Shown: positions 27,161 through 64,000 of the stretch, piece by piece | Layout: each line of letters opens with the position of its first letter | Position numbering within the stretch: the stretch's first letter is position 1 | Source: a bacterium | Lineage (GTDB): Bacteria; Patescibacteriota; Dojkabacteria; GCA-002793355 | Assembly (NCBI GenBank): GCA_020853235.1 | Contig: JADYZG010000028.1 | Span: 1,881-65,880 of the forward strand | DNA length: 64,000 nt | Direction of reading: 5' to 3' | Made by a program: the position numbers and the translations under genes | The notes under the pieces: generated by a model | The model's input: the letters and a program-made list of their open reading frames with translations, nothing else | Databases searched by the model: none | What the model was told of the DNA's origin: nothing

Positions 27161-27928
27161 TTATTTCGTTGGATCTTTACTAAAGAGTCGCTGTATCAAG
27201 CTGATACTTTTCATGAATCCGTACTGTCTGCTACTCGCCGAGACAAGGGTGTTTTTATCGTTATAACCCGTAAGCGCTGTACTAATCCATTCTTGTCTTT
27301 TTGTATTTAACATTGAAGCTTTAATCTCTGAGACAATTTGTTCTTTGACATCTGCCAACTTTTTACCCTTGAAGAGCTCTTTGTTTTCAGTAAAATAGTC
27401 GTTAATTTCTTTCTCTGTTGGTTCTGTAAGTGTTCCTTCGAGAAGCTTGTCGAGTGTTACTGTAACGCGAACATAGGCTCGATAATCGTTCGCAGTAATT
27501 CCATTTTGTGCTAATGCAGCTTCGAAGTCCGCATCAGTAGAAATGCCTGCGCGGGTTTTGTCTGCATTTATTGCTGTATTTACTTCATCGTCACTGACTG
27601 TAATTCCCTTATCTTTTGCTGCTTGTGCAATTGCTGCTTTTGCAAGCATTTCGTTAACAACCTGCTCTCCGTATTGTCTTTCGAGCTCTTTTATGTATGC
27701 AGCTCTAGGGACATCGGCATTTTTATAGAATGCGACATATTGCGAAGTAATTGAAGTCTGAATTAGCCAATCAACAGCAGGAATAAGTATCAGCGCTACA
27801 ACAATTCCAACAGCGACTTTGATGAGTGTTCCTTTTTTGAGGCTGAATTTTGTTGGGAGTTTAAATCTCTTCGAAGTTTCCTCCACTACTGGTGTAGAAA
27901 TTGCTTCGGTAACTTTCTTCTCTTTCAT
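27161..27928 (-). CDS. SurA N-terminal-domain / PpiD-like membrane-anchored chaperone without a recognisable PPIase domain
   Basis: 255 aa with one TM (VAVGIVVALILIPAV), followed by a helical chaperone-like region. A TGTTATAAT element on the minus strand sits at 27960-27968. Confidence 0.55.
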   Translation of the reverse strand: MKEKKVTEAISTPVVEETSKRFKLPTKFSLKKGTLIKVAVGIVVALILIPAVDWLIQTSITSQYVAFYKNADVPRAAYIKELERQYGEQVVNEMLAKAAIAQAAKDKGITVSDDEVNTAINADKTRAGISTDADFEAALAQNGITANDYRAYVRVTVTLDKLLEGTLTEPTEKEINDYFTENKELFKGKKLADVKEQIVSEIKASMLNTKRQEWISTALTGYNDKNTLVSASSRQYGFMKSISLIQRLFSKDPTK

Positions 27929-28008: not shown

Positions 28009-29382
28009 CTATAAAACTTGTTTTTTGGAATCTAGTCCATCAAGATGCCAGTAGATACTTAAAAGTCTTTTTCCGTTGTATACATTACCGTGGTTAACCA
28101 AGGCATATCGCCCACCCATACTATCGACCCCATAATATACTCTGCCAGGTAGAGCCGCATATATTGGTGAACGCCAACCGTTGAGAGAAAACACCTGACC
28201 AGGAACTTGCCCATTGCAGGCACGAGAGAGTATCTTGTATTTCTTACTGCTATTTTGGTTGCCTGCCGTAGTAGAAACCATATCAACCGATTGCCAGTCG
28301 TGGAAACCTTGTGTCATGAGTGCACCTGCAAGCGGGGCTTTTGCCCGACCATCTGATATACGCAATCCTGATAAATTAAGCAAACCAGAAGTAAAAGGAT
28401 TCACATTCGTATAGTAACTTGAGCCTGTACCTGATATAAACCCAAAATGAAGGTGTGCGCCAAAAGTACATCCAGTGAAACCTTCAAGTCCGATAACGGT
28501 ACCTCTTTCGACTGGTGTACCGTCCCCTAATTTATTCGCTTCAAACAGCTGGATCGCTACAGAAAGCGCTTGTCTTTCTGCAATGTTTTGTTGAGCTATA
28601 AGTTTCGATTTTTCTGCTGCAAGTTGTTTCTCCTGTTGTGCAAGTGTGTTGAGTAATCCTTGTTGTTTGTTTCTTTGTTCGGCAAGTGTTGTTCTGAGCT
28701 TGATTATCTCGAGATTTGCTGCTTCTATAATGTCTCGCTTTTGAATGATTTCCACTTGTGCAATACCAAGTACTTTTTCCTCTGAAGATAGCTGCGATTG
28801 TAAGTTGGTAAATTGTGCCAAGCGCGTCTTTTCTTGTTGAGACACGTAGTCGAAGTAACGGAGCATTTCTAATGTAGATATAAGATCATTTTGCGCAAGT
28901 AAATACCAGACAGGGACACTGTTTACTTTGTAAGCGAGCATGGCAACATCATTCACTTTCTGAACCGAAGTGTGTGTCTCTTGTTTTAGCGTGTCAATTC
29001 TGTTCTTTGTTTCAGCTATATCCTCTCCTATATTAGAGATTTCTATGCTCGCAATTTCTAGTCCAATCTGTTTTTGCTCAAGTTCGTTCTCATTAGCGGT
29101 AATCTGTGCATTAATCTCGTCAATTTGCGATTGAATATCACCTTCTTGCGCTCGAACATTTCGTAGCGTACTCTCTATTTTTTTTCGTTCATTCTTAAGA
29201 TCATTACTTTTTTTGACAAGGTAGTCGTAACACTGGCTATTTGAGTACCCATCAGGACATCCATTTGCCGCAAAGACGGGTACTGCTCTAATTGCAGATG
29301 TGTTGACAGCTAGTACAATCACCGAAAAAAAACCGAGAATAATCTTTGTAGTTGCACGAATTTTCATAGGTAATATTTGCAT
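28009..29382 (-). CDS. coiled-coil M23 family metallopeptidase (EnvC/PcsB-like FtsEX partner)
   Basis: Signal/anchor, then about 250 aa of heptad-rich coiled coil, then M23 motifs (GFTGCTFGAHLHFGF, FHDWQSVD, PIYAALPGRV, GGRYALVNHG, SIYWHL). It lies immediately downstream of ftsEX. Confidence 0.8.
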   Translation of the reverse strand: MQILPMKIRATTKIILGFFSVIVLAVNTSAIRAVPVFAANGCPDGYSNSQCYDYLVKKSNDLKNERKKIESTLRNVRAQEGDIQSQIDEINAQITANENELEQKQIGLEIASIEISNIGEDIAETKNRIDTLKQETHTSVQKVNDVAMLAYKVNSVPVWYLLAQNDLISTLEMLRYFDYVSQQEKTRLAQFTNLQSQLSSEEKVLGIAQVEIIQKRDIIEAANLEIIKLRTTLAEQRNKQQGLLNTLAQQEKQLAAEKSKLIAQQNIAERQALSVAIQLFEANKLGDGTPVERGTVIGLEGFTGCTFGAHLHFGFISGTGSSYYTNVNPFTSGLLNLSGLRISDGRAKAPLAGALMTQGFHDWQSVDMVSTTAGNQNSSKKYKILSRACNGQVPGQVFSLNGWRSPIYAALPGRVYYGVDSMGGRYALVNHGNVYNGKRLLSIYWHLDGLDSKKQVL

Positions 29383-30311: not shown

Positions 30312-31190
30312 TTATGAAATTTTCTTTAGGTTATCTGCTAACTGTGTAATCTCTTCGTCGGTAAATTTGAGTTCTTCTTTGAGGAAGCTCGGCGTTAAGT
30401 TTAATAAATCTTCTTTCTCATCAGGGTTAAGTGGCGCAAGTTTCTCAACAACTGAAGCAGGCATGACGGAGAGGAGTTTTGTTTTAAAGGCTTTTGCTGA
30501 CTTAGGTGCGATACCACTTTGATTGCCATGAACAAGTTCGCCACCTTCCAAATGCCAATGAGTGTGCGTGTCGTGACGTTTTAACAAATCGAGATTGTGT
30601 GTTGTCATAATAATACTTGTTCCAGCTTTATTGATTTTGTTTAAAAGTTCCATAATTTTATCGCTATTATCTTGGTCTAGGTCACCGGTGGGTTCGTCAG
30701 CGATTAATAATTTTGGATTATTCGCGATCGCTCTTGCGATAACAACTCGGCGTTTTTCTCCTCCTGACAGTTGCTTTGGGAAGAGACTCTTTTTGTCAGA
30801 AAGTCCTACATAGTCGAGGAGGGACTCAACTGTCTTTTGGATATCTTTAGGTGAACGGTTTAGAATCTCGAGGACGAATGCGACATTTTCATAAACATTC
30901 TTATGCTCAAGAAGTTTATAATCTTGAAAAACAACGCCGATTGCCCTTCTATATGGCGGAATAAGTTTTCTAGGTAATTCGTTAATGGGGACTGTTTCAA
31001 AAACGATACTTCCTTTGGTTGGTGATTCTTGTCGAATCAGTAGCTTGATTAATGTCGTTTTCCCTGAACCAGATGGCCCAGTCAAAAAAACGAATTCACC
31101 GCGTTCAAGGCCGAAAGAAACATTTTTTAAAACGGGAATAACGGTATTTCCTTGCGTATATAATTTTGACAGTTTTGAAACTCGGAGCAT
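30312..31190 (-). CDS. ftsE: cell division ATP-binding protein FtsE with a roughly 70-aa C-terminal extension
   Basis: Walker A GPSGSGKTT, ABC signature LSGGEKRR, and Walker B LLIADEPTGDLD. Confidence 0.92.
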   Translation of the reverse strand: MLRVSKLSKLYTQGNTVIPVLKNVSFGLERGEFVFLTGPSGSGKTTLIKLLIRQESPTKGSIVFETVPINELPRKLIPPYRRAIGVVFQDYKLLEHKNVYENVAFVLEILNRSPKDIQKTVESLLDYVGLSDKKSLFPKQLSGGEKRRVVIARAIANNPKLLIADEPTGDLDQDNSDKIMELLNKINKAGTSIIMTTHNLDLLKRHDTHTHWHLEGGELVHGNQSGIAPKSAKAFKTKLLSVMPASVVEKLAPLNPDEKEDLLNLTPSFLKEELKFTDEEITQLADNLKKIS

Positions 31191-61509: not shown

Positions 61510-64000
61510 TTACGGCGTTGCTGTTGGAGTTGGTGTGGCTGTTGGAGTTGGTGATGGCAGTGTTACTACGATATTTCTAATGGCAGTAGCAGTTTTTGCT
61601 AAAGAATCTGTAGCTTTAGAAGTAATCAGAAGTGGCCCGGCAACGGCACTATTGGGAACTTTACAACCGATACAATTCCATTGCCCAGCGAGAAAGAGCG
61701 CACCATACGTGTTTCCGTCGATAGTAAACTCGACGCTGGAGATTCCATTACCAGAACTTGCAGTCACACTAGCAGAGATAAGGTCACCCGGTCCATAACT
61801 AGCGTTTTCAGCGGGGGTAATATATGAAATTGTTACATCAGGGATACATGGCTCTTCGGTAGGTTTATCTTCCCAAAGTTTGTATTTAAGTTTTTCTGTG
61901 ACATATTTCTCGTAGGCAGCTTGCTGGGCACTATTTGGTAGTTTGAAGTCTAGATATAGGGTATCTTTAATTAATCCTGCTGCACGAGCTTCGGTCTCGT
62001 TGCTAGCGATCTTCCCATTTTTTGTACAGATAGGCAGCTTTTTGTGTGCTGTGTCTGGTGCTGGCCCTTTTCCTTTAATGATAGGAGTGGTGAATTTGGA
62101 ACACTCGACACCGTTTGTTGCCGCAAGTCCAGTGTCTCGACAGACTGTCGTAAATGAAACTCCTGCAGGTTGTGTATAAAATTCTTTTCCATATTTTGGA
62201 ATTAGTCGCTTCATAATATTATTTGCAACTATGATAGGAACATTTTCAGACCACCCTGAAGTTCTGTCTCCGTTGTTATTTCCGTTCCATACACCGACAG
62301 TTAATCGAGGATAGTAGAGAAGCGTTACCAAGTCTTTCTGATCATTCGTGGTCCCAGTTTTACCACAGAGTTGCTGCCCGGAAGCCGTATAATACTGAGG
62401 TACGTGCTTGTCTTTATCTCCTCCAATCATGCACAACATCCAATTTAAAAGATAGACTTCTTCTTCTGAGAATACTCGCTTTGCAGTTTTCTCAGTCTGC
62501 GATTTAAAGACCTCTGTTCCTTTCGAATCAGTTACTCGAATGATTGTAGAGATGTCATGGCGAACCCCTTTGTTCGCAAATACTGCAAACGCGTTGGTAT
62601 GTTCAATTAATTTCATGTCTCCAGCACCGAGGGTTAGTGAGAGTCCATAGCGATCTCGCTGTGTTAGTGTTGTAATACCAAGTGCTTTTGCTGTATCAAG
62701 GAATACATCGGTTCCTCCAATCATTTGCAAGGTATACACTGCAGGTAAGTTCCTTGATTGGTTGAGTGCTCGACGCATGGTCAGCAATCCGTCGTATTTG
62801 AAATTCCAATTTTCTGGTTTATATGCTCCAAAAGTCATCTTAATATCCGGTGCAAGAGTTCCTGGATTGTACCCTTTATGAATTGCCGCCAAGTAGGTAT
62901 AAGGTTTGACAGAAGAACCCATTTGTCTCGGCATCACTGCAACATTAACTTTTCCATCAACGCGCTTATCTTTATTATTGTTATAGTCAACCGACCCAAC
63001 CATTGCTAGGATTTCACCGTTTTTTGGATTATTAATAACAACGGACCCATTGTAAACTTTATAAGCATTTTTGACATTATTAATGTGTTTCTTTAATTCT
63101 TCTTCTGCAATTTTTTGTGTATCCAAATCAAGAGTTGTATAAACTCGAAGACCACCTGCTCGTACTGCATCAGCACCGAACTGTGCTTCGAGTTGTTGAA
63201 TTACGTAGAAAACAAAATGAGGAGCAGTAATATTTACCTTTCCTGGAGTAATTGCTATCTCCTCGGCTTTGGCTGCAGTAATTTCTTCTTCTGTTACACC
63301 CGTTCTGTCTTTATATTTAAGCATAAGATCAAGTACGATATCTCGGTACTTTTTTACATTTTCAAAGTCTCCGTTATAGAGTGCATTGCTGTAAGCACCA
63401 GGAGCTCTGACGACTACAGAAAGTAATGCACTTTCTGCCAGTGTCATTTTGTCAATATCCTTATTAAAATATGCACGTGATGCAGTTTGAAATCCATATA
63501 CTGCGCCACCAAGGGGAACTTCATTCATGTAGAGTTCCAAAATTTGATCTTTGCTTAGCTTACTTTCTAATTGGAACGCCACCAAAATTTCTTTTAGTTT
63601 TCGACTAACATCTCGAGTATATGCATCATCGCCAAGTACTTTATAAAGAACAGTATTACGTGCTAGTTGTTGCGTAATTGTACTTGCACCGCGAGAACTT
63701 CTAGCACCTGTACGAATATAGTCAAATCCGGCGGAGAATAAACCGACCACGTCAATACCTTTATGTTCGTAAAATTCAATATCTTCCGCTGCGAGAAGTG
63801 CCCATCGTGTTTTTTCGGGAATCTTATCTAGTGCAACGAACTCTCGGTTAATATCCCCATATACCGTGTAAAGCAATTTTCCATTCCGATCAAAAATTTT
63901 GGTGCTTTGCTCCAGATCTTGTGTTGCGAGTTTTCCAGCATCTGGAAGTGAGGCATTGATTGTTCCGATGTACCCAGTTACAAGTATTGCGCTAATAATG
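61510..64000 (-). CDS. class A penicillin-binding protein (glycosyltransferase + transpeptidase), with the N-terminus beyond the window edge
   Basis: GT51 motifs (EDIEFYEHKGID, GASTITQQLARN), transpeptidase SSVKP, and KTGTT. A C-terminal Ig-like domain and a TPTPTATPTPTATP tail follow. The reading frame stays open upstream of the ORF-track Met at 63876 to position 64000. Confidence 0.9.
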   Translation of the reverse strand, partial: IISAILVTGYIGTINASLPDAGKLATQDLEQSTKIFDRNGKLLYTVYGDINREFVALDKIPEKTRWALLAAEDIEFYEHKGIDVVGLFSAGFDYIRTGARSSRGASTITQQLARNTVLYKVLGDDAYTRDVSRKLKEILVAFQLESKLSKDQILELYMNEVPLGGAVYGFQTASRAYFNKDIDKMTLAESALLSVVVRAPGAYSNALYNGDFENVKKYRDIVLDLMLKYKDRTGVTEEEITAAKAEEIAITPGKVNITAPHFVFYVIQQLEAQFGADAVRAGGLRVYTTLDLDTQKIAEEELKKHINNVKNAYKVYNGSVVINNPKNGEILAMVGSVDYNNNKDKRVDGKVNVAVMPRQMGSSVKPYTYLAAIHKGYNPGTLAPDIKMTFGAYKPENWNFKYDGLLTMRRALNQSRNLPAVYTLQMIGGTDVFLDTAKALGITTLTQRDRYGLSLTLGAGDMKLIEHTNAFAVFANKGVRHDISTIIRVTDSKGTEVFKSQTEKTAKRVFSEEEVYLLNWMLCMIGGDKDKHVPQYYTASGQQLCGKTGTTNDQKDLVTLLYYPRLTVGVWNGNNNGDRTSGWSENVPIIVANNIMKRLIPKYGKEFYTQPAGVSFTTVCRDTGLAATNGVECSKFTTPIIKGKGPAPDTAHKKLPICTKNGKIASNETEARAAGLIKDTLYLDFKLPNSAQQAAYEKYVTEKLKYKLWEDKPTEEPCIPDVTISYITPAENASYGPGDLISASVTASSGNGISSVEFTIDGNTYGALFLAGQWNCIGCKVPNSAVAGPLLITSKATDSLAKTATAIRNIVVTLPSPTPTATPTPTATP
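61519..61554. repeat. 2 x 18-nt tandem repeat encoding the (TPTPTA)n tail of the PBP
   Basis: GCTGTTGGAGTTGGTGTG / GCTGTTGGAGTTGGTGAT read directly from the sequence. This is a coding low-complexity linker. Confidence 0.8.

Follow-up and report, generated by a model that had tools for sequence, protein, structure and literature searches.

The FtsEX complex, together with a coiled-coil partner, is a standard example of how cleavage of the cell wall is switched from inside the cell. In E. coli, V. cholerae and P. aeruginosa this partner is EnvC (PDB 6tpi, 8tzl, 8hd0, 8i6o), in which an export signal is followed by a long antiparallel coiled coil and then, at the C-terminus, by a domain of the M23/LytM fold. 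The LytM domain of EnvC has the canonical order of motifs, has lost the catalytic residues and activates the Amidase_3 enzymes AmiA and AmiB. PcsB of S. pneumoniae, CwlO of B. subtilis and RipC of mycobacteria and corynebacteria also combine FtsEX with a coiled-coil protein, in hosts without an outer membrane; here the C-terminal domain cuts peptidoglycan and is a cysteine peptidase (CHAP or NlpC/P60). We describe a further protein of this general build, P0001, encoded directly after ftsE and ftsX in a 64,000-nucleotide stretch of DNA (the window) from a bacterium of the Dojkabacteria. The window belongs to contig 28 of a 33-contig, 840-kb genome that is about 95% complete. Like EnvC, P0001 is tied to ftsEX and has an export signal (predicted), a long coiled coil and a C-terminal M23 domain; in contrast to EnvC, the order of its M23 motifs is permuted and the catalytic residues are kept. 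It differs from PcsB, CwlO and RipC in that its C-terminal domain is of the M23 type.

In collinear M23 domains, an H..D motif is followed by P.yA, G.V, idH and Y.HL and then by G..IG..G.TG..HLHF. P0001 does not have this order. Because the last canonical segment comes first, we classed it as a permuted variant and not as an ordinary member. Its segment A corresponds to the canonical C-terminal third (G..V..G..IG..G.TG...HLHF...NVNPF); it contains GTPVERGTVIGLEGFTGCTFGAHLHFGF, with H310 and H312, and NVNPF at residues 326-330. A connector follows, which is predicted to form a beta-hairpin and whose length differs among family members. Segment B corresponds to the canonical N-terminal two-thirds (P..G..TQ, H361...D367, PIYAA..G.V, GG.YA.V.H431, Y.H446.L), and reads FHDWQSVD with H361 and D367, SPIYAALPGRVYY, GGRYALVNHGN with H431 and LLSIYWHL with H446, 11 residues before the C-terminus. 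An earlier note, made from the letters of positions 28,012 to 28,527 (exactly residues 286-457 of P0001), had reported this reversed order, and all the motifs that it quoted are present in the translation at the residues it gave.

Profile comparisons gave the same picture. The Pfam profile PF01551 (Peptidase_M23, 96 positions) matched P0001 as two stretches, the best of which aligned residues 283-317 with profile positions 55-89. When the upstream piece was scanned alone it matched positions 56-89 (22.1 bits), and the C-terminal piece (from residue 339) matched positions 14-56 (14.2 bits; about residues 405-451). The C-terminal part of the profile thus lies upstream of its N-terminal part. Rejoining the two pieces canonically through a short linker gave one collinear match (positions 14-89, 32.7 bits). 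A phmmer search of the PDB placed the end of the query (SPIYAA to YWHLDGLDSK) on residues 160-204 of C. jejuni Pgp3 (6jmx) and its start (GTPVERG to HLHFG) on residues 206-236. NCBIfam gave only noise-level matches to P0001, Pgp3, MepM and ShyA for the HxH piece and EnvC with 6.8 bits, and neither Pfam nor NCBIfam holds a dedicated model for a permuted M23 domain.

As a family profile we used A4, which aligns only the M23 domains of 28 diverse permuted members. Searched against the PDB, A4 matched 44 solved M23 sequences (best E 1e-18), among them Csd3, ShyA, Pgp3, zoocin A, lysostaphin, LytM, DipM and EnvC. Half of the 44 matches came in two stretches, and the order was swapped in both matches printed in full. 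In 4rny, profile positions 46-132 aligned with chain residues 177-267 and positions 3-68 with residues 273-336; in the phage protein 9m7n, positions 59-132 aligned with residues 777-860 (E 6.8e-6) and positions 4-49 with residues 865-910 (E 2.1e-8). In both structures, and likewise in 6jmx, the two stretches abut 4-5 residues past Y.HL. With hhalign, A4 was aligned to a profile of 22 canonical M23 domains: query positions 3-50 fell on template columns 96-141 (E 2.3e-20) and positions 56-133 on columns 16-96 (E 9.1e-18). The halves meet at template column 96, without overlap or gap, and jointly cover the canonical profile. After the column blocks of A4 were re-permuted in silico, a single hhalign alignment was obtained (116 columns, score 215.5, E 2e-38). 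The reversed order is therefore far beyond chance, given the E values of the A4 and hhalign matches. Judged by these sequence comparisons, the M23 domain of P0001 is a clean circular permutation, with new termini at the canonical junction a few residues past Y.HL. The known enzymes LytM, lysostaphin, ShyA, Csd3, Pgp3 and zoocin A share the motifs and the presumed catalytic set of P0001 (A4 matches with E from 1e-18 to 1e-11); all of them are collinear, and none has HxH first or ends at Y.HL.

Structure prediction was carried out with AlphaFold2. The full-length model of P0001 (60-sequence alignment) had a mean predicted local distance difference test score (pLDDT) of 85.8, with an all-beta C-terminal domain above 90. 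Residues 282-457 modelled alone (75 sequences) formed one compact all-beta domain, with a pLDDT of 96.3 and a predicted template modelling score (pTM) of 0.91, and every canonical M23 strand motif was predicted as a strand. The earlier note had left open whether the order reflects a circular permutation or two complementary half-domains. Permutation fits better, as the halves abut at one column and the model is a single domain. In a Foldseek search with the full-length model, the top match was EnvC as bound to FtsEX in V. cholerae (8tzl_E, E 1.7e-5); EnvC 6tpi_A came next, ahead of PcsB 4cgk and the N-terminal domain of RipA (6ewy). These matches are driven by the coiled coil (EnvC, SMC, Tc toxins) and inform on the coiled coil, not on the M23 domain.

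The permuted form is not a peculiarity of one genome. An exhaustive HMMER search with residues 274-457 against 1.84 billion representative proteins gave 82 matches, and 16 homologues with 41-74% identity over the C-terminal domain all measure 445-474 residues. HxH precedes Y.HL by 110-140 residues in 78 of 96 collected proteins, with Y.HL C-terminal in the sequence; in the 12 canonical M23 proteins of this collection, Y.HL lies about 33 residues before HxH. We then used A4 to search 401 genomes of Patescibacteria, the phylum of the window. About 95 of them, from many families, contain a single full-length collinear match to A4 (positions ~2-133), mostly in open reading frames (ORFs) of 360-475 residues, whereas canonical M23 genes in other genomes of the phylum matched only positions 4-55. 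Within the class of the window, the permuted form was found in 21 of 24 genomes. Orthologues therefore bear out the order that had been read from P0001 alone.

The genetic context is conserved too. In most of 31 named loci, ftsX lies directly upstream of the permuted gene, with ftsE in front of it where the flank allows, and this linkage extends to distant families (loci L044, L048, L049). P0071, a distant permuted member with a canonical HxxxD, is encoded in the order prfB, small gene, ftsE, ftsX, P0071 gene. Overall, ftsX precedes the permuted gene over a range of protein identities from 21% to 75%. In the window, only 9 bases separate the stop codon of ftsX from the start of the P0001 gene, and the placement of a coiled-coil protein directly after ftsE-ftsX, also claimed in the earlier note, is correct. 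Distant permuted members weakly match the Pfam family CC_PcsB (26.3 bits).

A useful comparison is provided by genome G103 of the same phylum (locus L052), where a 414-residue coiled-coil protein directly after ftsE-ftsX carries an M23 domain in canonical order. This protein, which served as control, gave the single collinear PF01551 stretch that P0001 did not give (positions 2-96 of 96, 116 bits), with intact HxxxD, Y.HL and HxH. P0001 and the G103 protein can be aligned only piecewise: the position after ftsEX, the coiled coil and the M23 domain are common to both, and in P0001 the C-terminal third of the M23 domain has moved in front. Both orders thus occur in the same post-ftsEX position within one phylum, which points to an origin of the permutation in an FtsEX partner inside the candidate phyla radiation (CPR). 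The usual route, a tandem duplication whose two ends are later trimmed, would account for it; an intermediate was not found. Eight canonical-order M23 matches of about 400 residues had been considered as FtsEX partners. Seven of them combine a membrane anchor, LysM and M23 and are unrelated to ftsEX, and only the G103 protein qualifies.

We examined residue conservation in 75 permuted sequences. H310, H312, G413, Y444 and H446 are present in 75/75, D367 in 74/75, H431 in 70/75 and L447 in 68/75. We equate H310/H312, D367 and H446 with the two His of HxH, the Asp in HxxxD and the catalytic His within Y.HL, respectively, of LytM-type enzymes. P0001 would thereby keep the full five-residue M23 catalytic set, with H361, D367 and H312 as putative ligands of a zinc ion and H310 and H446 as the putative catalytic pair. 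The assignment of H361 is tentative. The earlier note had identified an H...D motif as the first segment; the motif is there (residues 361-367, window positions 28282-28302, minus strand), but its spacing is H-x5-D and not the canonical HxxxD. None of the 14 closest homologues departs from H361 or D367. P0001 shares a His at D-6 with 26 more members of the family, and HxxxD persists in many of the distant permuted ones (KHQAID, FHTGVD). The first ligand His thus seems to have shifted within the family, from the canonical D-4, kept in many members, to D-6 in the clade of the window. A few permuted members (P0017, P0023) carry both histidines.

Separately, the representative-protein search returned P0094, a protein of 219 residues from a high-GC source, with a signal resembling those of twin-arginine translocation and without coiled coil. 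It has the canonical M23 order together with the unusual motifs of the window clade (QGFHDxxSVDxVS, SGC..H.HF, DINPF), and could be an ancestor-like form or the result of transfer or convergence.

Taken together, we consider it likely that P0001 is an FtsEX partner made of an exported coiled coil and a naturally circularly permuted M23 domain, and that it acts as a peptidoglycan endopeptidase under FtsEX control. Along the chain, the HxH strand and loop come first, then the new hairpin connector and the old N-terminus (H...D), and the domain ends right after Y.H.L. By analogy with EnvC, PcsB, CwlO and RipC, the ATPase cycle of FtsE would move the extracellular domain of FtsX, which holds the coiled coil, and this movement, transmitted via the coiled coil, would release an auto-inhibited hydrolase at the division site. 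Several points weigh against this explanation. The score of whole P0001 with PF01551 (29.5 bits) is barely above the cut-off of 28.7. The first-ligand motif departs from HxxxD, and H361 is not kept family-wide, many members having their His at D-4. The Pfam scores of FtsX (FtsX 20.2 bits, FtsX_ECD 17.7 bits) are under the curated cut-offs, although the matches lie where expected. Finally, when PDB and BFVD were searched with the domain model, neither the significant nor the top-50 Foldseek matches included an M23 structure, which we read as the limit of an order-dependent aligner faced with a permuted chain carrying a 32-residue insertion, and so as evidence neither way.

Bacteria of the CPR have no outer membrane. 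That P0001 cuts peptidoglycan itself is more probable than that it serves as an activator in the manner of EnvC, because the catalytic residues are kept, no Amidase_3 was found and an outer membrane is lacking, as in the users of PcsB, CwlO and RipC. We hold it unlikely that the permuted LytM domain is non-hydrolytic and, like EnvC or NlpD, activates a separate amidase. In structure, the full-length model does resemble EnvC proteins most closely, the H-x5-D spacing of the window clade could mean a weakened metal site, and the genome encodes one Amidase_2 protein, a further point against a direct hydrolase. But EnvC-type activators have lost their metal ligands, whereas H310, H312, D367 and H446 each vary in at most one of the 75 sequences, and the 6.8 bits obtained with the NCBIfam EnvC model (NF008644) compare with a cut-off of 270. 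Amidase_3 is the only amidase type known to respond to EnvC or NlpD. Its profile (PF01520) had no match at E<=1 in the 840-kb genome, an absence that the incompleteness of the assembly keeps from being absolute; the same profile gave matches in 9 of 14 well-known genomes used as control. A little less probable still is an active permuted hydrolase that works independently of FtsEX, adjacency reflecting co-expression only. The low FtsX scores would allow for it, and the interaction with FtsX is one that we infer; yet the gene order persists across many families and down to 21% identity, P0001 has the kind of coiled coil with which EnvC, PcsB and RipC attach to the extracellular domain of FtsX, and in another lineage the place after ftsEX is taken by a homologue of canonical order. 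That there is no true permutation, the two pieces being what is left of two decayed domains, the product of a faulty assembly or a frameshift, or chance motifs that do not fold together, is very improbable. Each piece is weak on its own against Pfam and Foldseek does not recognise M23, but the same architecture recurs with intact frames in about 100 independent genomes, the halves join at one template column and cover the canonical profile, the model is a single domain, and only 80 bases lie between the stop codon of P0001 and the next gene.

If P0001 is an FtsEX-controlled hydrolase, what the permutation does to its regulation becomes the most interesting question raised by the family. The last helix of the coiled coil (ending at residue 281) reaches the HxH-bearing strand and loop within about 8 residues. 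Compared with EnvC, the attachment of the coiled coil has shifted from the far N-terminal strand to the segment just before the HxH loop, and the chain ends beside H446. With the helix entering near HxH and the chain ending, in most members, one residue past Y.HL, both termini and the FtsEX lever would come to lie at the edge of the active site. The permutation may then be non-neutral and rewire the control by FtsEX, the helix or the C-terminal carboxylate gating the zinc site directly in a new mode of auto-inhibition and release. We regard this as possible but doubtful; if true, direct gating could explain the fixation of the variant across a large part of the CPR. Canonical and permuted versions in the same position, within one phylum, in any case offer a natural experiment on the coupling between a coiled-coil lever and a catalytic domain.

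M23/LytM proteins are among the most studied peptidoglycan hydrolases (lysostaphin, LytM, ShyA, EnvC), and we found no description of a naturally permuted M23/LytM domain in the literature searched, which did not extend to subscription journals. The permuted domain is a solid observation with a wide taxonomic spread. It explains the partial, near-threshold M23 match of P0001 and the split, two-piece match of its relatives, so that annotation in the CPR can be corrected. A model with a pLDDT of 96, of a very common fold and without significant Foldseek match, also warns that a circular permutant may escape fold searches which depend on residue order. Members of the CPR are uncultivated, ultra-small, wall-bearing bacteria with a reduced division machinery, and an FtsEX-controlled hydrolase would be a concrete piece of that puzzle. 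A precedent among peptidoglycan hydrolases exists in the circularly permuted NlpC/P60 families (YaeF/poxvirus G6R, LRAT-like), where the order of the catalytic residues is swapped (PMC6403190). Unlike P0001, these have a different fold and catalytic class and no link to FtsEX. Circular permutation among barrel-sandwich-hybrid domains in general has already been noted (PMC11515920).

The features of the locus and of P0001 are listed in Table 1. On the minus strand, the genes follow each other in the order ftsE, ftsX, P0001 and a SurA_N/PpiC-like gene. The cleavage site of the P0001 export signal is putative.

Table 1. Genes of the ftsEX locus and segments of P0001, in window coordinates
Feature	Coordinates	Strand	Basis
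ftsE (ABC ATPase), 292 residues	30312..31190	-	Pfam ABC_tran 127 bits; directly upstream of ftsX in related loci too
FtsE charged C-terminal tail (3' end of ftsE)	30312..30520	-	
ftsX (membrane component with extracellular domain), 305 residues	29392..30309	-	Pfam FtsX 20.2 bits, FtsX_ECD 17.7 bits
P0001, coiled-coil protein with permuted M23 domain, 457 residues	28009..29382	-	ORF and translation
Predicted export signal or membrane anchor, residues 1-39 (hydrophobic helix 9-30, then ...PVFAAN)	29266..29382	-	sequence; AlphaFold helix 9-30, then low-confidence linker
Coiled coil, residues 48-281 (long helices 48-154 and 167-281)	28540..29241	-	AlphaFold secondary structure
Permuted M23 segment A, residues 282-332	28387..28539	-	PF01551 positions 55-89; hhalign; H310/H312
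New connector, residues 333-347, old C-terminus to old N-terminus	28342..28386	-	AlphaFold strands 335-338 and 341-344
Permuted M23 segment B, residues 348-447	28042..28341	-	PF01551 positions 14-56; hhalign; PDB 6jmx chain residues 160-204
Clade-specific insertion, residues 371-402, between H...D strand and P.yA strand	28177..28272	-	family alignments
C-terminal tail, residues 448-457 (DGLDSKKQVL), and stop codon	28009..28041	-	family comparison
SurA_N/PpiC-like gene, directly downstream of the M23 gene	27161..27928	-	Pfam SurA_N_3 48 bits

Two of these segments vary within the family. The insertion in segment B is found in about 50 of 75 members; distant members without it have the canonical direct connection. 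A C-terminal tail after Y.HL is present in 17 of the 78 permuted members, while 50 of them end one residue past Y.HL. A C305-C389 disulfide co-varying with the insertion was considered and is not claimed, as the counts are mixed (both cysteines in 32 sequences, only one or the other in 13 and 15).

The charged C-terminal tail of FtsE extends about 70 residues past the ABC domain. It is alignable in close and in some distant Dojkabacteria loci, and is missing in the 227-residue FtsE encoded beside P0071. Of 31 related loci, 17 likewise have the SurA_N/PpiC-like gene 3' of the M23 gene, and this chaperone gene may be a fourth member of the ftsEX-M23 operon. In genome G137, of the same class, two permuted-M23 coiled-coil genes stand in tandem (ORFs of 430 and 465 residues; G137:C1:61736-62203 and 63085-63618, locus L039), and a 1.4-kb gap between ftsX and the M23 gene in locus L016 matches this arrangement.

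Other M23 domains are encoded in the genome of the window. A protein of about 446 residues (G000:C7:48456-48773, locus L002, ORF 550-1890) joins a membrane anchor and LysM repeats to a canonical M23 domain, as in NlpD or MepM; this type is widespread in the phylum (7/8 loci retrieved). On contigs C26, C33 and C29 (loci L001, L003, L005, L006), canonical M23 domains occur in ORFs of 945 and 1255 residues, and two neighbouring ORFs of 1296 and 1156 residues have weak M23-like matches. These very large M23 ORFs may encode lysins that an episymbiont uses at its surface or in contact with its host.

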